A stretch of 64,000 bases of DNA from Callorhinchus milii. Lineage: Eukaryota. The stretch spans positions 138,758,001 through 138,822,000 of the forward strand of contig NW_024704742.1 of NCBI RefSeq assembly GCF_018977255.1, read 5' to 3'. Below, piece after piece: positions 25,150 to 64,000 of this stretch (its first letter is position 1; each line of letters starts with the position of its first letter). The notes beneath the pieces were generated by a model. It saw only the letters and a list, made by a program, of their open reading frames with translations, was not told the DNA's origin and did no database searches. Made by a program: the position numbers and the translations under genes.

Positions 25150-25329
25150 TACGAGTTGCAAATTGACTCTGAGATGTAAATCACGCCCCATATATTTGCT
25201 GAATCCTTGGTATATAAGGCTCCCGCATACACAAGAATAAAGAGACACAGCAGAGCCTTACACAGCAGAGCTTTACACAACAGAGCCTTACAGTGACGTC
25301 TCTTAATTGGACTGAGACTTTCCTCAGGG
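25150..25329 (+). promoter_or_regulatory. Putative promoter and 5' UTR of the secreted repeat-protein gene
   Basis: TATATAAG at 25211; TGACGTC (CRE-like) at ~25294; three copies of a 15 bp unit acacagcagagcctt; unique sequence directly upstream of a signal-peptide exon. Confidence 0.55.
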
Positions 25330-25390
25330 ATGGAATTTACTTTCTTCCTATTTCTGACACTTATTTTCCAAGTGCAACCTCCTATAGCAG
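25330..25390 (+). CDS. First coding exon encoding a signal peptide (MEFTFFLFLTLIFQVQPPIA-G)
   Basis: gggATGG Kozak-like context, hydrophobic core, small residues near a likely cleavage site, strong donor CAG|gtaagc (phase 1). Confidence 0.7.
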
Positions 25391-44184: not shown

Positions 44185-45345
44185 AACCCACTCCCCCGCT
44201 CTCTCCCCATAGCCCCGATCAACCCCACTCCCCCGCTCTCTCCCCATAGCCCTGATCAACCCCACTCCCCGCTCTCTCCCCATAGCCCCGATCATCCCCA
44301 CCCCCCACCCCCCATAGCCCGATCAACCCCACTCCCCCGCTCTCTCCCCATAGCCCTGATCAACCCCACTCCCCCGCTCTCTCCCCATAGCCCTGATCAA
44401 CCCCACTCCCCGCTCTCTCCCCATAGCCCTGATCAACCCCACTCCCCCGCTCTCTCCCCATAGCCCTGATCAACCCCACTCCCCCACTCTCTCCCCATAG
44501 CCCTGATCAACCCCACTCCCCGCTCTCTCCCCATAGCCCTGATCAACCCCACTCCCCCACTCTCTCCTCATAGCCCTGATCAACCCCACTCCCCGCTCTC
44601 TCCCCATAGCCCTGATCAACCCCACTCCCCGCTCTCTCCCCATAGCCCTGATCAACCCCACTCCCCCACTCTCTCCCCATAGCCCTGATCAACCCCACTC
44701 CCCGCTCTCTCCCCATAGCCCTGATCAACCCCACTCCCCGCTCTCTCCCCATAGCCCTGATCAACCCCACTCCCCCGCTCCCTCCCCATAGCCCTGATCA
44801 ACCCCACTCCCCGCTCTCTCCCCATAGCCCTGATCAACCCCACTCCCCGCTCTCTCCCCATAGCCCTGATCAACCCCACTCCCCCACTCTCTCCCCATAG
44901 CCCTGATCAACCCCACTCCCCGCTCTCTCCCCATAGCCCTGATCATCCCCACTCCCCCGCTCTCTCCCCATCGCCCTGATCAACCCCATTCCCCCGCTCT
45001 CTCCCCATAGCCCCGATCAACCCCACTCCCCGCTCTCTCCCCATAGCCCTGATCAACCCCGCTCTCTCCCCATAGCCCTGATCAACCCCACTCCCCGCTC
45101 TCTCCCCATAGCCCTGATCAACCCCACTCCCCGCTCTCTCCCCATAGCCCTGATCAACCCCACTCCCCCGCTCTCTCCCCATAACCCTGATCAAACCCAC
45201 TCCCCCGCTCTCTCCCCATAGCCCTGATCAACCCCACTCCCCCGCTCTCTCCCCATAGCCCTGATCAACGATCAACCCCAATCCCCCGCTCTCTCTCCCT
45301 ATAGCCCTGATTAACCCCACTGCCCCGCGCTCTCCCTATAGCCCT
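44185..45345. repeat. Minisatellite, 36-37 bp unit, ~31 copies, derived from a CR1 3' UTR
   Basis: Unit ccccactccccgctctctccccatagccctgatcaa; flanked by minus-strand CR1 3' sequence (to ~45590). Confidence 0.95.
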
Positions 45346-45924
45346 GCAAACTTGTCCTCCCCAAATAATGATCTACTTCTCTCTTAAGTTGTTATGGAAT
45401 TGGCTTCCCTCAGCCTTTCAGGCAATGCATTCCAGATCCCAACAACTCACTGTGTGGAAACATTTCTCCTCACCTCCCCTCTATTTCTCTTGACAACTAA
45501 GAGAGATTACCGACCCACCCACCAGTGGGAATAGTCTCTCTTTGTTCATCCTATCGAATCCCCTCATAATTTTGAAAACTTCTATTAAGTCAAAGTCAAG
45601 ATCCTCTCACTCTCATGTTCAAATCCCTTCACTCCCTGGCACTTCCCTCCCTCTCCGACCTCCTCACTCCCCAACCCTTCACCCGGTCAGCGCCTTCGGT
45701 CAACTGGCACCAGCTCCTGGTCATTCTCGCACCCTCCGCCTCACTATCGGAGGTCGCGCTTTCAGCTTCACTACACCCCAAACTCTGGAACACTCTCCCT
45801 CAGTCCCTCTGCCTTGCCCCCTCTCTACCCTTTTTCAATTCCCGCCTGAAAACCTTCCTCCTCAACCGTGGCTCCACTACTTTTAAACGCTCTGAGATGC
45901 TGCCCTGCGTGCAGGGTACTAGAT

Positions 45925-52452: not shown

Positions 52453-52719
52453 GATCAGGTCACCTTCAGCCTTCTTTATTCCAGCAGAAAAAGTCCAATT
52501 TCCTCTGGTCTCCACTCAAAGGCCAAGCCACTCAACCCCATTATCATACTCGTAAATCTCTGTTCCCCTCTATCTCCCTGATGTCTTTCCTAAAAACTGT
52601 GGTGACCAATACTGGACACAATATTCTGACTGTGGTCTGATTAACGATTTATACATATTTAGCGTTACCTCTTTGCGTTTATATTCTATACCCTTATTTA
52701 TAAAACCCAAGGTTCCATG
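52453..52719 (-). mobile_element. Old CR1 fragment abutting the large exon
   Basis: Minus strand reads GTLGFINKGIEYKR..; similar to 19320-19420. Confidence 0.75.
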
Positions 52720-55700
52720 AGCTTGGATGTCAGCTCACACCATGATGTGAACGTTCCTGATGAAGCAAACCTTGGAGAGAAGATGTCTGATGAGAAGATG
52801 TCTGATGTGAAGTTTATTGGTGATCAAGTTTCTGGTGTGAAGATTCCTGGTGTGAAGACTCTTGGTGGTCAAGTTCCTGGTGTGAAGATTCCTGGTGCAC
52901 AAATTCCTGGTATTGATATGCCTGGCATGGTGACATCTGGTGTGAAGATTCCTGGTGTGAAGACTCTTGGTGGTCAAGTTCCTGGTGTGAAGATTCCTGG
53001 TGCACAAATTCCTGGTATTGATATGCCTGGCATGGTGACATCTGGTGTGAAGATTCCTGGTGTGAAGACTCTTGGTGGTCAAGTTCCTGGTGTGAAGATT
53101 CCTGGTGCACAAATTCCTGGTATTGATATGCCTCGCATGGTGACATCTGGTGTGAAGATTCCTGGTGTGAAGACTCTTGGTGGTCAAGTTCCTGGTGTGA
53201 AGATTCCTGGTGCACAAATTCCTGGTATTGATATGCCTCGCATGGTGACATCTGGTGTGAAGATTCCTGGTGTGAAGACTCTTGGTGGTCAAGTTCCTGG
53301 TGTGAAGATTCCTGGTGTACAAATTCCTGGTATTGATATGCCTCACATGGTGACATCTGGTGTGAAGATTCCTGGTGTGAAGACTCTTGGTGGTCAAATT
53401 TCTGGTGTACAAATTCCTGGCATGGTGACATCTGGTGTGAAGATTCCTGGTGTGAAGATTCTTGGTGGTCAAGTTCCTGGTGTACAAATTCCTGGCATGG
53501 TGAAATCTGGTGTGAAGATTCTTGGTGGTCAAATTCCTGGTGTGAAGATTCCTGGTGCACAAATTCCTGGTATTGATATGCCTCGCATGGTGACATCTGG
53601 TGTGAAGATTCCTGGTGTGAACATTCTTCGTGGTCAAATTTCTGGTGTACAAATTCCTGGCATGGTGACATCTGGTGTGAAGATTCCTGGTGTGAAGATT
53701 CTTGGTGGTCAAGTTCCTGGTGTACAAATTCCTGGCATGGTGAAATCTGGTGTGAAGATTCTTGGTGGTCAAATTCCTGGTGTGAAGATTCCTGGTGCAC
53801 AAATTCCTGGTATTGATATGCCTCGCATGGTGACATCTGGTGTGAAGATTCCTGGTGTGAACATTTTTCGTGGTCAAATTTCTGGTGTACAAATTCCTGG
53901 CATGGTGACATCTGGTGTGAAGATTCCTGGTGTGAACATTCTTCGTGGTCAAATTTCTGGTGTACAAATTCCTGGCATGGTGAGTTCTGGTGTGAAGATT
54001 CCTGGTGTGAAGATTCCTGGTGTGAAGATTCTTGGTGGTCAAGTTCCTGGTGTACAAATTCCTGGCCTGGTGAAATCTGGTGTGAAGATTCTTGGTGGTC
54101 AAATTCCTGGTGTGAAGAGTCCTGGTGCACAAATTCCTGGTATTGATATGCCTCGCATGGTGACATCTGGTGTGAAGATTCCTGGTGTGAAGACTCTTGG
54201 TGGTCAAATTTCTGGTGTACAAATTCCTGGCATGGTGACATCTGGTGTGAAGATTCCTGGTGTGAACATTCTTCGTGGTCAAATTTCTGGTGTACAAATT
54301 CCTGGCATGGTGAGTTCTGGTGTGAAGATTCCTGGTGTGAAGATTCCTGGTATGAAGATTCTTGGTGGTCAAGTTCCTGGTGTACAAATTCCTGGCCTGG
54401 TGAAATCTGGTGTGAAGATTCTTGGTGGTCAAATTCCTGGTGTGAAGATTCCTGGTGCACAAATTCCTGGTATTGATATGCCTCGCATTGTGACATCTGG
54501 TGTGAAGATTCCTGGTGTGAACATTCTTCGTGGTCAAATTCCTGGTGTACAAATTCCTGGCATGGTGACATCTGGTGTGAAGATTCCTGGTGTGAACATT
54601 CTTCGTGGTCAAATTTCTGGTGTACAAATTCCTGGCATGGTGAAATCTGGTGTGAAGATTCCTGGTGTGAAGATTCTTGGTGGTCAAATTCCTGGTGTAC
54701 AAATTCCTGGCATGGTGAAATTTGGTGTGAAGATTCCTAGTGTGAACATTCTTCGTGGTCAAATTTCTGGTGTACAAATTCCTGGCATGGTGAGTTCTGG
54801 TGTGAAGATTCCTGGTGTGAAGATTCCTGGTGTGAAGATTCTTGGTGGTCAAGTTCCTGGTGTACAAATTCCTGGCCTGGTGAAATCTGGTGTGAAGATT
54901 CTTGGTGGTCAAATTCCTGGTGTGAAGATTCCTGGTGCACAAATTCCTGGTATTGTTATGCCTGGCATGGTGACATCTGGTGTGAAGATTCCTGGTGTGA
55001 ACATTCTTCGTGGTCAAATTCCTGGTGTACAAATTCCTGGCATGGTGACATCTGGTGTGAAGATTCCTGGTGTGAACATTCTTCGTGGTCAAATTTCTGG
55101 TGTACAAATTCCTGGCATGGTGAAATCTGGTGTGAAGATTCCTGGTGTGAAGATTCTTGGTGGTCAAATTCCTGGTGTACAAATTCCTGGCATGGTGAAA
55201 TTTGGTGTGAAGATTCCTAGTGTGAACATTCTTCGTGGTCAAATTTCTGGTGTACAAATTCCTGGCATGGTGAGTTCTGGTGTGAAGATTCCTGGTGTGA
55301 AGATTCCTGGTGTGAAGATTCTTGGTGGTCAAGTTCCTGGTGTACAAATTCCTGGCCTGGTGAAATCTGGTGTGAAGATTCTTGGTGGTCAAATTCCTGG
55401 TGTGAAGATTCCTGGTGCACAAATTCCTGGTATTGTTATGCCTGGCATGGTGACATCTGGTGTGAAGATTCCTGGTGTGAACATTCTTCGTGGTCAAATT
55501 TCTGGTGTACAAATTTCTGGCATGGTGAAATCTGGTGTGAAGATTCCTGGTCTGATGTTTCCTAGTATGACATTATTTAATGTGAACACGCCTTTTGCAA
55601 CGCTTCCTGCTATGTTGTTATTCAATCGGCAGACTCCCAGCATGGCCAATCTCAGGTTGTGGTTACCTGATATGATGAGACCTGCTGGTGAGAGGTTCCC

Positions 55701-56400
55701 AGGTTGGAGTTTCCCAGGTGGGAATTTTCCTGATGGGAGACAACCCAATATGGGGTTTCCTGGTGTGATCCCAGGTTGGAAGCTTCCTGGTGGGTGGCTC
55801 TTCTTTTTGAGAACGGCTGGTACAGAGTTTCCTAATGTGTTCCCTAGTGGGACATTCCCCTTTTTGAGAATGCCTGGAATGGATTTTCCTGGTTTCACAT
55901 TCCCTGGTAGGCACAGACTTGGTTTTGGCTGGAACATACCTGGTGTGCAGTTTCCTGGTTTTGGCTTCCCTGGCAGGAACATACCTGGTGTGCAGTTTCC
56001 TGGTTTTGGCTTCCCTGGCAGGAACATACCTGGTGTGCAGTTTCCTGGTTTTGGCTTCCCTGGCAGGAACATACCTGGTGTGCAGTTTCCTGGTTTTGGC
56101 TTCCCTGGCAGGAACATACCTGGTGTGCAGTTTCCTGGTTTTGGCTTCCCTGGCAGGAACATACCTGGTGTGCAGTTTCCTGGTTTTGGCTTCCCTGGCA
56201 GGAACATACCTGGTGTGCAGTTTCCTGGTTTTGGCTTCCCTGGCAGGAACATACCTGGTGTGCAGTTTCCTGGTTTTGGCTTCCCTGGCAGGAACATACC
56301 TGGTGTGCATTTTCCTGGTGGAAGACTCTCCTTTTGGTGGACAAACAGCATGGAGGTTCCTGATGGGAGATCAGATGTTTGGAGGATGCCTGGTATGTAG
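52712..56400 (+). CDS. Large exon of a Gly/Pro/Val/Ile-rich pentapeptide-repeat protein (1227 aa ORF from 52717), probably secreted and structural
   Basis: Only frame open across both the repeat arrays and the degenerate linker at 55550-55930, where the xPG periodicity persists at protein level; candidate acceptor cccaag|GT TCC ATG in phase 1. Confidence 0.75.
52830..55550 (+). repeat. 15 bp coding tandem repeat (~180 units) with 105, 240 and 480 bp higher-order periods
   Basis: cctggtgtgaagatt consensus; lines at 53401/53641 and 54721/55201 are duplicated. Confidence 0.97.
55930..56318 (+). repeat. 45 bp coding repeat (RNIPGVQFPGFGFPG, ~8.5 copies)
   Basis: Internal copies identical at the nucleotide level. 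Confidence 0.97.
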
Positions 56401-56796
56401 ACTCCTGTTGCAAATTTACATGATGTGAAGATGCCTGTAGTGATGTCTGTTGTGTGGCTACCTTGTGTGAATATTCCAAGTAAAAGTGGGAGGTTACCTA
56501 GTGTGAAGATTCCTGACATAGACATTCCTGATGCGGAGTTTGGGGTGCAGCTGGAGTTTGGGGTGCAGCTGGAGTTTGGGGTGCAGCTGGAGTTTGGGGT
56601 GCAGCTGGAGTTTGGGGTGCAGCTGGAGTTTGGGGTGCAGTTGGAGTTTGGGGTGCAGTTGGAGTTTGGGGTGCAGTTGGAGTTTGGGGTGCAGCTGGGG
56701 TTTGGGGTGCAGCTGGGGTTTGGGGTGCAGCTGGGGTTTGGGGTGTATACAGACGTTTTGAAACATCGTCTGGTTAAGAATGACACTGTATCAAAT
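56401..56796 (+). other. In-frame open continuation after the TAG, ending at a splice donor; includes 18 bp repeat EFGVQL (~11.5 copies, ~56536-56745)
   Basis: TPVANLHDVKMP..SVKIPDIDIPD retains the pentamer motif; AAT|gtaaga donor in phase 0. Confidence 0.6.
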
Positions 56797-56829
56797 GTAA
56801 GAATTTGTTTGTGGATAGTGTTGTTTACT

Positions 56830-57030
56830 GGGGCGGAGGTGGGGTTAGCGGGAGGGGGTGGTTTAGTGGGGGGCGGGGTTAGTGGGAGGGATGTTAGTGG
56901 GAGGGGGTAGTTTAGTGGGAATGGGTGGTTTAGTGGGAGGGGTGTTAGTGGGGAGGGGTGTTAGTGGGGAGGGGTGGTTTAGTGGAGGGGGGGGTTAGTG
57001 GGAGGGTGGGTTGGGGATACAGGGGATGGG
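56830..57030 (+). repeat. G-rich degenerate repeat (gggaggggtggtttagtg)
   Basis: About 9 imperfect units with G-runs immediately downstream of the donor. Confidence 0.85.
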
Positions 57031-57514
57031 TTGAGGAGTGAGGTGTAAGCAAATTGGAGAGGTAGGAAGGTACCAGGCATGAATTGATTTGAACATGAGT
57101 GTGAGGATCTTGAAATGGATACGTTCAGTGCCTTGGGACGTCCTCCCGACGTGAAAGGCGCTATGCAAATGTAATCTTGTTGTTGTTGTTGTGTGACAGG
57201 GAGCCAGTGGAGCCTGGTTGTTGAAGACAGGTTTGACAGTGTGTCAAATCAAGTGGGAACTAGACCAATACAGGAAACTCTTGATACTGCAATCTATTTA
57301 ACTAGTCAGCACCAATTAGGTCACTATGCCCCGCTGTCAGTACCCCGATAACTTCCCATGCACAATGTTAATAAGGGACTCGTCACACCCCCTAACACCT
57401 AACTGGTCACATTCTAGAAATTCTTGTGAGTAATTACAATGTAAAATTGATCAGATAAGTCGTCCTATAGATGGCTTCTTGCATCAAAGAATCCTCTGGT
57501 CTATTGGAGAACCA

Positions 57515-57822: not shown

Positions 57823-58441
57823 ACCTTCCTCCCCATTCTGTGACAATAGACCAAAGGCCTCTGCAACAGAATAAGGCAGGGCTCTTCAATAAACCAGAGG
57901 CCTCTGCGTGCCTCTGAGCATATGCGCCCAACCTCTACTGATTAACCCCACCCGTCACAGCGCCCCCTTGTGACCTACAGCTAACTCACCACTCTGGATA
58001 ACTCATTGCTGAGCTCTTTTCCCTTGGAGTAACACTTTTTCAGAGTTTATTGTACCTTAACAACAACAACAACAAGATTGCATTTATAGAGCGCCTTTCA
58101 CATCGGGAGGACGTCCCAAGGCGCTGTGTAAGTTTCTACGGTTCTGTGTTATGGGGTTGTGGGCTGACTTACGTCTCTCCTGAATGTGTCAGCTTGCAGT
58201 CAGCAGTTGTAGATATTTGTGAAGATTAAATGATACACAGTCATCCCTGTCTTCAATCAGGGGACTGGGCCAAAGTGGCCTTTATGTAGGGGTGGCCTCT
58301 GAGTAAGGCTTTGTTGGTGTGTGAGTCTGGCTGTTGGGCTGTGCCAGGGTGATTGTTAACAAGGGGGTGGTTGCTGAATGGAGGTGGTTGCTTCAACAGA
58401 TTTGACTGTAATGTATTCAGCTTAGTTTTTTGTCTTCACAG

Positions 58442-58532
58442 GTACTGGACTGGAGAAGTGGAATGATGGAACATGTGAAAGTGTGATGGCATACCTAGAT
58501 CCAGATGGAAAATATTGTTCTCTGCAAATAAC
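58442..58532 (+). other. Candidate downstream exon; phase 0 reads VLDWRSGMMEHVKV*
   Basis: Strong acceptor ttttttgtcttcacag| and donor AAC|gtaagt in unique sequence. Confidence 0.5.
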
Positions 58533-58699
58533 GTAAGTGGAGGCTGTGATGGTTCAATAAGAGGTTGCAGCTCCTCTTCTTATTATACATCACTCTCATC
58601 CACCTACCCACTCACGGACCCCCCAACCCCGCCGCACACATAATGACACACGGGCACAGTTCAAGCACTGACAGGGGAGCCTTAGCAGCCACTACACAG

Positions 58700-59110
58700 A
58701 TCTCATTACACCAGCTTCACCAGCTCCCAATTATTGAACATATCAATATCCTCTCACTCGTTTTCAAATCCCTTCAGGCCCTCCCCCCTCCCTACCTCTC
58801 CAATCTGCTTCCCCCACCCGCTGCCTCAGCTCGGCTGGCTCCAGCCTCCTGTTTGTCCCTCGATCACTCCGTTCCACCATCGGTGGCCTTGCCTTCAGCC
58901 ACTACTCCCTGAAACTCTGGAACTCTCCCCCTCAACTGCTCCGCCTTGCCCCCTCCCCACCCACTTTCAAATACCGCCTAAAGACCTTACCTTTTAAATG
59001 TGCTTACGGTCACCTACCCGTTCCCTCTGCCCTGGCTTGAATCCAAAACTACCAAGCACTCTGGGACGCTACCATGCATGAAGGATGCTGTATAAAGGCA
59101 AGTTGTTGTA
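58700..59110 (+). mobile_element. Older L2 3' fragment
   Basis: LHQLPIIEHINILSLVFKSL and tail. Confidence 0.75.
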
Positions 59111-59299
59111 ACTTGGACAGTCAAGGGTTTGCACCCGATCTGGAGGTTAGGTTCAAGAGGAATGGGGCCAAGGAAGGGGGGTCCATGCTCTCTGGAGCTC
59201 TGCAACTCACACTCTCTCATTTAAAGCACAACCAGCAACATAAAGCCCTTTGAAACATCCACTTTTGAGAAAGGTGCTATATAAATGTAAATGATGTAG

Positions 59300-61449
59300 T
59301 GCATTTTATTATAGGGGGTTACGATGTGGTGGCAGTAACTGAGACATGGCTTAAGCCAGGACAGGAATGGGAGATAAATATTCCAGGGTATAATGTGTTC
59401 AGGAAGGATAGAGAAGGAAGAAAGGGTGGAGGGGTGGCAATATTAGTTAAGCATACAATTATAGTTGTAGAAAGGAACGAGGCTCTGAAGGGCCCGACAA
59501 CAGAATCGATCTGGTCAGAGGTCAGAAATAGGAAAGGAGTGGTTACACTGATAGGGGTTTACTATAGACCACCAGATAGCGGGAAGGAGATAGAGGAGCA
59601 GATCTGCAACCAGATCACGGACAGATGTAGGGCGAACAGAGTTGTCATAATGGGGGATTTCAATCATCCCAATATAGATTGGCAAAATAGTAGCGTTAAG
59701 GGCAAGACAGGAGAAAGATTCATCAACTGTGTACAGGAAAATTTTCTTGAGCAATATATCTCCAGTGCTACAAGGAAGGAAGCATTGCTGGATCTTGTCC
59801 TAGGGAATGAAGTAGGTCAGGTTGAACAAGTTTCGGTAGGGGAGCATCTAGGTAACAGTGACCATAATATTATTAGATTTAGATTACTCATGAACAGGGA
59901 CAAAGTACAGTCAAGGGTGAAAATGCTTGACTGGAAAAGGGCTAATTTTGATGGGCTAAAAAGGGACCTAGAGTTGGTGGACTGGCAAGTAAGAATGGCA
60001 GTTAAAACGACTCATGAGTAATGGGAAATTTTCAAAGATACGATAGCTCAGGGTCTAAATAGATATATTCCCACAAAAGGGAAATGTGCGAGAACCAAGC
60101 CAGCCTGGATGGCCAGGGATATTCTGTCTAGGATGAAAAAGAAGAAGATGGCGTATGACATTTCGCGGATGCAAGACACTGAGGATAGCAAAGCGCATTA
60201 TAGAGAATGCAGAAGTGGAGTCCTGTAGCTCAGTGGTTAGAGCACTCGCTTTGCAAGTGAGAGACCTGAGTTCAATCCCCGGGGGGTCAGGGCGAAACCT
60301 TGGGCAAGTTTCCTTACTCCACACAGAGCCTAATAATAATCCCTCCAAAAACCAAAAACAATAATAAATTGGTCATTTTCAATCTACGGTTGTTTGTGGG
60401 ACATTGCTGTGCGCAATTGGCTGCCGCGTTCGCCCACAAATATACAGTCAATTCACTTTACAGTGTGTTCTGTGAAGTGCTTTGGGACGTCCTCCCGACG
60501 TGAAAAGCGCTATATCAAATGCAAGGATTATTATTATAAGTGGTCTTAAAAGAGTGATAAGACAGGCTAAAAGATCGCATGAGAAGAGTAACATAAAGGG
60601 GAATCCTAAAATATTTTACAAGCACATAAAGGAAAAAAGGTTAGTTAAAGGTAGGGTGGGGCCAATCAAAGGCAATGACGGCCATCTTGTTGTGGCGGCA
60701 GAGGGATGGCTGATGTACTAAGCGAGTACTTTGCATCTGTCTTCACAACGGAAATGGATGCCCCAAATGCCGCACTATTGGATGAGAGTTGTAGAGGACA
60801 TAGATCAGATTACTATAGACAGAGAGGAAGTTCTGAAAAGATTGACTGGGCTGAAAATTGATAAGTCACCAGGACCAGATGGGTTTCACCCAAGGTTGCT
60901 GTGGGAGATACGGGTTCAAATAGCGGAGGCTTTGGCCATTATATTTCAATCTTCATTGGACACAGGAGTGGTGCCAAGAGACTGGAGAGTGGCTAATGTT
61001 ACCCCACTCTACAAAAAGGGGCAGAAAGACAAACCCGGAAATTACAGGCCAGTCAGCCTAACTTCGGTAATAGGAAAACTACTGGAAACCATAATCCGGG
61101 ACAGAATAAATCTCTACTTAGAGGAACACGAGGTAATTAGAGACGGCCAACATGGATTTGTTAAAGGCAAATCTTGCCTAACAAATCTAATAGAATTTTT
61201 TGAAGAGGTGACTGCGAGGGTTAATGAGGGAAATGCGGTGGACATTATTTACATGGATTTTAAAAAGGCTTTTGACACAGTACCGCATAAGAGGTTAATA
61301 AAAAAACTGGAAGCCCACGGTATTAAGGGGACAGTAGCCGTTTGGATTAGGAACTGTCTGAGTGACAGAGAGCAGAGGGTGGTGGTTAATGAGTGTTTCT
61401 CGCAATGCAAGGAGGTGTGCAACGGTGTCCCCCAGGGATCGGTATTGAG
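59300..61449 (+). mobile_element. CR1 ORF2 (endonuclease and RT N-terminal half) with SINE insert
   Basis: [45 protein letters not shown]. Confidence 0.95.
60215..60537 (+). mobile_element. Full-length short-form SINE in CR1
   Basis: aagtgg at both junctions. Confidence 0.93.
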
Positions 61450-64000
61450 CATAAGAACATAAGAATTAGGAGCAGGAGTAGGCCATTCGGCCCTTCGTGC
61501 CTGCTCCGCCATTCAATAAGATCATGGCTGATCTTCTCACCTAACTCTGATTACCCGCCCTATCCCCATATCCCCTAATCCCTCTATTTTTCAAGAATCT
61601 ATCAGTCTCAGCCTTGAAAATGTTCAAGGACTGACATCTACAGCCTTCTGGGGGAGTGAATTCCATAAGTTCACTACCCTCTGAGTGAAGAAATGTTTCC
61701 TCAACTCTGTTCTAAAAGGCTGACCCTTAATTTTCAGACTGTGACTCCTGGTTATAGATTCTCCTCCCGGGGAAACAGACCCTCTGTGTCTACTTTATCA
61801 GCCCTTTAAGAATCTTATAAGTTTCAATAAGATCTCCCCTAATTCTTCTGTACTCCAGAGAATACAGTCCTAGTTTATTCAGCCTCTCCTCATAGGTCAT
61901 TCCCCTCATCCCAGGAACTAACCGAGTGAATCTACACTGCACCCCTTCGAGAGCAAGTATGTCCTTTTTTCAATAAAGAGACTAAAACTGCACACAATAC
62001 TCTCGGTGCGGTCTCACCAAAGCCCTATACAGTTGCAGCGAGACTTCCCTACTCTTGTACTCTAAACCTTTCGAAATGAACGCTAACTGCCGTTCGCCTT
62101 CTTAGTTGCTGCTGCACTGCAAACTAACTTTTTGGGACTGGTGTACAAGACACCCAAATCCCTTTGAATACTAACATTATTCGGCGTTTTGTTCGACCCT
62201 GAGCTGTCCTTTCTCCCTCACATCCGCACCACAACTGGCACCGCCTTCCATCACCTCCGGAACATCGCCAGACTACGGCACTACCTCACCCCTCACTCGG
62301 CTGAAACTCTGGTCCACGCCTTTGTCACCTCAAGGCCGGACTATGGGAACTCTCTCCTCGCCGGCCTTCCCGGCCCTCCCTCCACACTGCAGGTCATTCA
62401 GAACTCTGCAGCTCGTGTACTGTCCCGCACCAGACACCGCGCCCACATCACTCCCACCCTCGCTCGCCTCCACTGGCTCCCCATCCCCCAGAGGATTGAT
62501 TTCAAGATCCTCATCCTCACCTACAAGGCCATTCACGGCCTTGCTCCCTCCTACCTCTCCAACCTACTATCCCCCTACCTACCTGCCCGTACCCTCCGTT
62601 CCTCTGGCTCCGGTCTGTTCCACGTCCCCCGCCCCAATCACCCTACCATTGGTGGTCGGGCTTTCAGCCTCTCAGCCCCTAGGCTCTGGAACTCTATCCC
62701 CCAGTGCCTTCGCCGCTTCCTCCCTCTCCTCCTTCAAGGCCGGTCTCAAAACCTTTCTCTTTGACCAAGCCTTCAGCTCCCCTCTCGACTCTCTTCCCCC
62801 TCCTCGCTCCCTCCCTTCCCTCACCCTGACCATTTCCCCCCTCCTCGCTCCCTCCCTTCCCTCCCCTCACCCTGACCATTTCCCCCCTCCTCGCTCCCTC
62901 CCTTCCCTCCCCTCACCCTGACCATTTCCCCCCTGCTCGGGTCATGACCCAACTGTGCAGCGCCTTGGGATGTCCTCCTGACGTGAAAGGCGCTTTATAA
63001 ATGGAATCTTGTTGTTGTTGTTGTTGTATTATCTAACGTCTCCCCTTCCAGAAAATAATCTGTTCTTTTATTCTTGCTACCGAGGTGAATAATTTCACAC
63101 TTGCTAACATTGAATTCCATCTGCCACCTACTTGCCCACTCCCCGAGCCTATCTATATTCCGTTGCAATCTTTTTGCATCATCCTGAGAGCTCACTCTGC
63201 TCCCTAGTTTAGTATCATCCGCGAATTTAGACACATTACATTCAATGTCCTCGTCCAGATCATTGATGTAAATGGTAAATAGCTGAGGCCCAAGCACTGA
63301 TCCTTGTGGCACTCCACTAGTTACATCCTGCCAATTCGAGAATGATCCGTTTATCACTACTCTCTGCTTTCTACCCGATAGCCACTCTTCTATCCATGTT
63401 AATATTTTCCCATTAATCCCGTGGGCCTTGATCTTGAGTAACAGCCTTTTGTGTGGCACCTTGTCAAATGCCTTCCTAAAATCCAAATATACCACATCTA
63501 CTGGTTCCCCCTTATCCAACCTGCTGGATACATCCTCAAAAAATTCTAAAAGGTTAGTCAAGCATGACTTCCCTTTTGTAAAGCCATGTTGACTCTGCCT
63601 AATCTTTTTATGGTCTTCCAGGTATCCCATAACTACGTCTTTTATTAAGGACTCAAGAATTTTCCCTACAACTGACGTCAAACTAACTGGTCTATAGTTT
63701 TCCCTATTTTTTCTCCTGCACTTTTTAAATAGTGGAGTTACGTTTGCAATCTTCCAATCAATGGGAACTTTTCCAGTATCCACAGACTTTTGGAAGATTA
63801 TAGACATGCCATCCACTATCTCAGTAGCCACCTCCTTTAAAACTCTCGGATGCAGGCCATCCGGTCCAGGGGATTTATCGGTTTTAAGACCCGACAATTT
63901 ACCTAGAACCATCTCTTTACTAATGTTAATCTCCCTAAGTTGCTCGCTAACATTGTCTTCTTGGTCCTCTATTTTTGGTATGTTTCCAGTGTCTTCTACG
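61450..64000 (-). mobile_element. Young CR1 (RT to 3' tail), running off the window end
   Basis: Uninterrupted ~295 aa RT stretch [19 protein letters not shown]; tail complement cataagaacataagaa. Confidence 0.95.
62181..63027 (+). mobile_element. 5'-truncated young L2 inserted in the CR1
   Basis: attat duplicated at both ends; FDPELSFLPHIR..LARLHWLPIPQRIDFKIL; ~3 copies of the 3' UTR minisatellite. Confidence 0.95.

Follow-up and report, generated by a model that had tools for sequence, protein, structure and literature searches.

The DNA analysed here (the window) is a stretch of 64,000 nucleotides of the genome of Callorhinchus milii (assembly of 992 Mb; C1:138.76-138.82 Mb). The upstream neighbours are GHR and SELENOP, recognized by the Pfam domains GHBP and SelP_N, and the downstream neighbour is NIPBL, which is encoded on the opposite strand; CCDC152 presumably lies between GHR and SELENOP. 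The plus strand of the window carries a frame of 1245 codons without a stop (52663-56400) that contains a long array of pentamers. Together with a candidate signal-peptide exon about 27 kb upstream of the array, a spliced exon behind it and a predicted exon past the window end, this frame forms the putative gene described below (Table 1).

Table 1. Features of the array gene and its surroundings (window positions unless a segment is named).
Feature	Position	Strand	Remarks
TATA box TATATAAG	25211..25218	+	119 nt before the ATG of candidate exon 1; putative promoter; unchanged in the paralogous copy
Candidate exon 1	25330..25390	+	20-codon hydrophobic signal peptide, strong phase-1 donor; link to exon 2 predicted
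Old interspersed-repeat fragment	52567..52724		likely exon-2 acceptor AG (52710-52711) and ATG at 52717 both lie inside it
Exon 2	52712..56392	+	3681 nt, phase 1 to phase 1; 3' end from RNA junction, 5' end predicted, weak acceptor
Pentamer array	52819..55548	+	182 units of 15 nt, 910 aa
Linker	55549..55923	+	degenerate, 125 codons, stop-free
45-nt repeat block	55926..56319	+	8.8 copies; 15 residues rich in Phe, Pro and Gly, one Arg
Intron start	56393..56544	+	degenerate pentamers persist in the same frame beyond donor and TAG
Exon 3	58442..58532	+	91 nt, phase 1 to 2; RNA junction
Predicted intron 3	58533..64000	+	runs beyond the window to predicted exon 4
Predicted exon 4	L004:3796-3919	+	3.8 kb past the window end; second half of TIL module

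The array runs in strict register from GDQVS to the last GVKIP and is composed of 27 distinct 15-nt units that encode 27 distinct peptides. All 10427 pairs of repeated 24-mers within it are spaced by multiples of 15 nt, and higher-order repeats of 105, 330 and 480 nt are present. Slot 1 is G in 162 of the 182 units, slot 2 is V, G, M, I or A in 177, slot 3 is Q or K in 128 and slot 4 is I in 119, while slot 5 is occupied by P (105), S (43) or L (31). The array contains 91 K+R versus 10 D+E (net charge +81), 95 PG pairs, 38% Val/Ile/Met/Leu/Phe, 8% Ser+Thr and 1% Ala, and exon 2 has no N-glycan sequon. A preliminary description of the sequence had proposed about 180 pentamers in a strict five-residue register preceded by EANLG-EKMSD-EKMSD-VKFIG, which agrees with the in-register count and with the lead-in found. 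Its unit formula, G-(V/A/G/I/M)-(K/Q/N/D)-(I/V/M)-P, fits exactly 100 of the 182 units, the rest being GMVTS-type units and units ending in S or L. The 1227 residues lacking Cys and Tyr that it reported correspond to 1227 codons from the ATG at 52717, but not to a stand-alone gene, as a splice donor terminates the frame; that description had overlooked both the exon structure and the cysteine-rich tail, a putative route to disulfide bonding. The spliced model contains 4-8 Cys, all C-terminal, and 2 Tyr.

The array is bordered at both ends by degenerate pentamers, which on the 3' side extend about 50 codons into the following intron. Because they persist in frame past the donor and a TAG, exon 2 likely once extended further 3'. 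Of 18 distances from one Pro to the next in the linker, 15 are divisible by 5, and the 45-nt block is devoid of Ser and Thr (0%). The stop-free state of the degenerate parts has a chance of 4-18% under neutral change, which is modest evidence of selection. The array is single-copy, with no second copy among 146 matches in its own genome; the 4 matching loci that were checked are other minisatellites which, taken as non-coding, give frames of 290-640 codons, so that a long open frame alone is little proof of coding. Two further minisatellites occur in the window, one of 37 nt upstream of the array (44187-45346, 32 copies) and one of 18 nt in the intron, in the old pentamer frame (56535-56745, 11.7 copies).

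Splicing of the frame is indicated by one contig (number 15) of run X2, which is presumed to consist of RNA reads; the runs are neither recorded as RNA nor labelled by tissue. This contig (266 nt, depth 16) fits 56280-56395 and continues with 150 other letters, the first 30 of which occur at 58445-58474 and at no other place in the window or the genome. The breakpoint is ambiguous by three letters, which agree with either side; a GT-AG reading ends exon 2 at 56392, with GT at 56393, and starts exon 3 at 58442, behind the AG at 58440-58441. This splice leaves the TAG at 56398 in the intron. Exon 3 has a single open frame, and this frame continues that of the array, so that coding on the plus strand, as the preliminary description had it, is likely. 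Coding on the minus strand was considered, as one antisense frame is open for 945 codons. It was rejected because this frame does not reach beyond the array and only the plus strand gives the junction GT-AG ends. Contigs on the array are present in 4 of the 4 presumed-RNA runs found with the array. Run X9 gave no contig on the stretch. The junction is supported by one contig of one run, and contig depth is a poor measure of abundance. In the intron (56486-57060) no contig of X1 or X2 was found, and X5 has one just behind the donor; X1 and X2 also have no contig at 55580-56030, although such holes prove nothing. A wider mapping of contigs over 16 kb was swamped by interspersed repeats. One contig of X5 (depth 12) differs at window position 55553, where C replaces T and turns a Leu of the linker into Pro.

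The 5' boundary of exon 2 is less firmly placed. The nearest phase-1 acceptor is 52712, and all phase-1 acceptors near the exon start score weakly with the rough matrices built for this analysis. The acceptor lies in an old repeat fragment that is 68-85% identical to several local copies and is presumably LINE-like. A phase-1 acceptor at 55775 and the pyrimidine-rich CAG of the 45-nt units outscore 52712, and splicing of the mature mRNA could in principle enter exon 2 only within the linker or the 45-nt block, which would yield a short secreted peptide and leave the array mostly intronic. The shallow 45-nt repeat loop of X2, only 1.7 times the depth of the junction (about 5 times in X5), would fit such a transcript. 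Conversely, the array contigs of X2 exceed the junction (16) in depth, with 82-123 for the three longest and 22 and 44 for two shorter ones, no splice joint falls inside 52560-57060 among the joints listed for run contigs, and acceptors in the 45-nt units would shift the frame, all of which makes a mostly intronic array very improbable.

The gene likely starts at the TATA box and signal-peptide exon listed in Table 1, with the join of exons 1 and 2 being deduced from sequence. A scan of 264 kb gave 113 stretches from an ATG to a donor; 13 of them are hydrophobic, and this exon is the only one with a phase-1 donor and a TATA box as well. The promoter and signal exon have a paralogous copy 610 kb away (G000:C1:138172895-138173345, minus strand; L114), 87% identical and part of a duplication of several kb. 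In this copy the ATG, frame and donor are kept and 56 of 61 nt of the exon are identical, the differences comprising 3 silent changes, 1 changed codon and an in-frame indel of 3 nt, compared with 173 of 210 identical positions in the intron. Within 200 kb of the paralogue there is no match to exons 2-4. It adjoins two tandem CC-chemokine genes (Pfam IL8; L125-L126, G000:C1:138136000-138149000, minus strand), which by synteny we take to be likely of CCL28 type.

At the other end of the gene, exon 3 and predicted exon 4 likely represent the remnant of an otogelin-type TIL module, an assignment drawn from sequence and intron phase. The join of exons 3 and 4 is a prediction; downstream of exon 3, L004:3796 is the earliest acceptor that is single-copy and followed by an open frame in phase 2. 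Exon 4 could end at a strong donor after 32 nt (score 8.9), which would cut the TIL module, at a weak ancestral donor after 80 nt (-1.4) or at a TAA, and depending on this end the gene models comprise about 1295-1318 residues and 4-8 Cys. The phases of exons 1-4 join in frame. Compared with PDB entries, the exon 4 frame matched the end of TIL3 of VWF (E 0.7). Compared with TIL-bearing loci of the same genome (12884 frames from 40 stretches of 10 kb), its top two matches were exons of two otogelin-family genes, both of 80 nt and phase 2 to 1, which align without gaps (13/27 and 12/27 identical). One of these genes carries AbfB, a marker of otogelin (PMC4948705); the other was assigned by exon pattern. 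Exon 3 corresponds to the first half of a degenerate TIL and matches the preceding otogelin exon with P = 0.0012 (5000 shuffles) and the same phases, and exons 3+4 jointly score 80 against otogelin, versus a mean of 26 and a maximum of 54 in 5000 shuffles.

Otogelin and OTOGL, proteins of the acellular gel-like membranes of the inner ear, likewise encode their third TIL, which follows D3, in two exons of phases 1-2-1, the last of 80 nt. The array gene shows the same division, with a predicted exon 4 and a weak 80-nt donor. Elsewhere the TIL intron positions differ, being further on in VWF and after LEG in mucins. The array gene also shares with the otogelin/OTOGL TIL the positions of Trp, Cys, Asp-Pro and LDE..T.RCV, predicted secretion, and a large low-complexity exon beside the TIL. 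In contrast to OTOG/OTOGL, this large exon precedes the TIL instead of following it and encodes a cationic, hydrophobic Pro-Gly repeat rather than a Pro/Thr/Ser one. Cysteines 1, 3 and 4 of the nine otogelin ones are replaced and one extra Cys is present; among the lost residues is the counterpart of Cys1142 of VWF, a residue through which VWF chains are linked (PMC8847404). VWD, C8, AbfB and cystine-knot exons were not found by tblastn with 1131 frames of two otogelin loci (40 and 50 kb, partial genes) on unmasked DNA from -8 to 83 kb, a search that recovered only the last TIL exon and that small diverged exons escape, as exon 3 did. No C-terminal cystine knot or D4 unit was detected up to 18 kb past the window, where NIPBL looks cut and the assembly may be broken.

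Other affinities were considered for these exons. Exon 3 has a WND motif and some likeness to C-type lectins (E 0.5-1.4), which was rejected for want of the closing Cys and because the likeness is accounted for by the match to otogelin. A short Cys-rich frame on another contig (G000:C9:16446329-16446418, minus strand; L042), without a Pfam hit or clear acceptor and presumably similar to a BCMA/TACI-type repeat, scores above the otogelins against exon 4 with its read-through tail (19.4 bits), whereas its 10.6 bits against the 80-nt form fall short of theirs. A kinship of exon 4 with TNF receptors was set aside, as it leaves exon 3 and the phases unexplained. A likeness to periaxin and AHNAK was dropped in view of the signal exon and the TIL exons.

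With respect to its material properties, the pentamer array shares with tropoelastin and VPGXG polymers a pentameric Pro-Gly periodicity, hydrophobicity and Lys. The preliminary description suggested a coacervating elastomer of this kind, cross-linked at Lys or Gln by lysyl oxidase or transglutaminase, and the 95 PG pairs, the hydrophobic fraction and the many Lys and Gln are in its favor. Elastomers require a 2P+G of at least 0.60, below which aggregation into more stable or amyloid-like forms may occur (PMC7061623; bioRxiv 2024.12.03.626628). This value is 0.44 for the array and 0.45 for the whole exon, and only the 45-nt block (0.66) lies above the threshold. The array moreover lacks VPGVG, any V/I-P-G-x-G unit, Ala-rich cross-link domains and K-A/P-K cross-link motifs (0). 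Elastin is encoded by many small alternating exons, unlike the single giant exon with a cysteine tail described here. An elastin-like elastomer is, on these grounds, quite improbable.

The second proposal of that description, a beta-helix of the pentapeptide-repeat type, would make the array a regular beta-solenoid rod with four or three pentamers per coil and hence a stiff fibre. Its strict five-residue period, common to Rfr proteins such as MfpA and Qnr, and the hydrophobic slots 2 and 4 agree with such a fold, and a single-sequence structure model is strand-rich, its best Foldseek rows being beta-helical pentapeptide-repeat proteins. This likeness is weak (E 0.65 or worse, TM 0.43), and model confidence is low (pLDDT 48, and 34 for a model from an alignment of repeat copies). 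The Rfr consensus is [STAV][DN][LF][STR]G; in the array D/N occurs at 11%, central L/F at 0%, and Pro fills the next position in 57% of the units (105/182). The profile search that had been proposed matched no Pfam family at E up to 1, Pentapeptide included. Units have been gained or lost singly or in pairs between higher-order copies, which also speaks against such a rod, and the predicted context is that of a secreted vertebrate protein. Membership of the pentapeptide-repeat family is accordingly not supported and a regular solenoid is unlikely, while a secreted structural repeat protein is the best reading.

Gel-forming mucins and Xenopus MucXS/Otogl2 offer a closer analogy, as they combine a signal peptide, a giant repetitive region and a Cys-rich end (PMC5789918, PMC4948705), and by this analogy the array gene may share with them a role in an extracellular gel. 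It differs from them in the absence of D domains and of any sequon in exon 2, as well as in its TIL intron positions; a Pro/Thr/Ser-rich, O-glycosylated central domain is not found, given the Ser+Thr contents of array and 45-nt block stated above. The array gene likely resembles mucin/otogelin gel or matrix proteins most, yet is no member of either group, as it has no D domains, AbfB or Pro/Thr/Ser domain (PMC4948705, PMC5789918).

Among the single-base steps between unit types, 0 of 20 are silent versus 4.3 expected (P about 0.004), so that there is no sign of purifying selection in the array; counted from the same comparison, these steps amount to 18 distinct codon changes, and silent shares of 0.21-0.29 give P of 0.002-0.014. 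The lack of silent steps was noticed post hoc, and older multi-base differences between units do include silent ones. Diversifying selection, a constraint on the RNA, or chance may account for it.

Taken together, the data are interpreted as an exon-shuffled, lineage-specific gene whose product, a secreted protein of about 1300 residues, is predicted to self-associate into a gel or fibrous matrix, a reading for which the balance stands close to even and in which self-assembly is argued from composition. The signal-peptide exon, under its TATA box, would target the product for secretion. With their pattern of Gly, hydrophobic, polar, hydrophobic and Pro residues, the pentamers would form short strands and Pro-Gly turns that stick through their Val/Ile faces, the Pro/Gly level being below that which keeps elastomers disordered. 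Lys side chains may bind polyanions such as mucins or glycosaminoglycans, and the resulting screening of charge would lead to condensation after secretion, with the 45-nt block as a flexible, sticky spacer. Since three of the nine otogelin cysteines are lost, the TIL remnant would not adopt a TIL fold, and its remaining Cys could cross-link chains by disulfides.

Several observations speak against a matrix protein: the weak, likely repeat-derived exon-2 acceptor, the weak 80-nt donor of exon 4, the one-contig junction, the shallow 45-nt loop of X2, the lack of a purifying-selection sign and the failure to find an orthologue. Some of them would be explained if the locus were a decaying chimera, transcribed but non-functional, in which an amplified minisatellite exon is spliced to relic otogelin exons and no protein function is selected. 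The loss of three TIL cysteines, among them the chain-linking one of VWF, the old frame that enters the intron and contains a TAG, the low contig depths and the long frames of other minisatellites point the same way. Such a chimera would hardly be expected to keep exons 1-4 in frame, a TATA box, signal peptide and donor intact in two copies, degenerate flanks that are stop-free and retain the Pro period, and a spliced exon 3 with a strong acceptor; decay is thus judged rather unlikely, though a serious contender. A more ambitious form of the matrix-protein reading is speculative and, in our judgement, unlikely. In it, a duplicated promoter and signal exon, a LINE-supplied acceptor, the cationic beta-turn block of 182 pentamers and an otogelin Cys module would have produced, in chimaeras, a new vertebrate extracellular biomaterial, a non-glycosylated, beta-rich gel or fibre triggered by polyanions, with a repeat under diversifying selection (the 0/20 silent steps) as in an egg-coat, seminal or surface-defence protein.

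Database searches, whose reach is limited for short or repetitive queries, returned no orthologue or other homologue of the array gene. One homologue search gave 4 matches, all unrelated repeat proteins, an exact sequence look-up was negative, and matches in an atlas were all under 0.9. No paper on this gene was found in the literature covered, which excludes most subscription journals and all supplements, where annotation tables could name the gene. If the matrix-protein reading is true, the gene is one that the protein databases searched here do not contain, and a cysteine module of the mucin superfamily has found new use beside a repeat that is cationic and non-glycosylated, in place of a Pro/Thr/Ser domain. 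The locus would retain the traces of its assembly: duplication of the first exon, an acceptor supplied by a repeat, a shift of the donor into the former array, and borrowed exons of matching phase. The two natural repeat blocks, which straddle the Pro/Gly threshold of elastomers, would allow a simple test of that rule and provide a possible template for protein materials.

The neighbourhood shows features of its own. NIPBL exons on the minus strand, 18-94 kb past the window end (L005-L013), reach L005:8540, which corresponds to chain position 873 of the 1467-1652 in PDB entries; from there towards the window no further NIPBL-like exon was seen, and searches with PF12830 did not place the rest of the gene. 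A misassembly or rearrangement may have moved the 3' part of NIPBL elsewhere and could likewise have truncated the array gene at its end. Four laminin-G/EGF exons, presumably EGFLAM-like, occur twice, about 11.4 kb apart, around a gap of 25 N (L115-L116, G000:C1:138031000-138047200), probably as an assembly duplication. In the same genome, a GC-rich 15-nt minisatellite at the end of exon 1 of a gene that we take to be IGFBP-like (L002:1327-2244) is an intronic repeat. The first coding exon of SELENOP (L014:852-1071, minus strand) has an in-frame TGA at the expected selenocysteine position.
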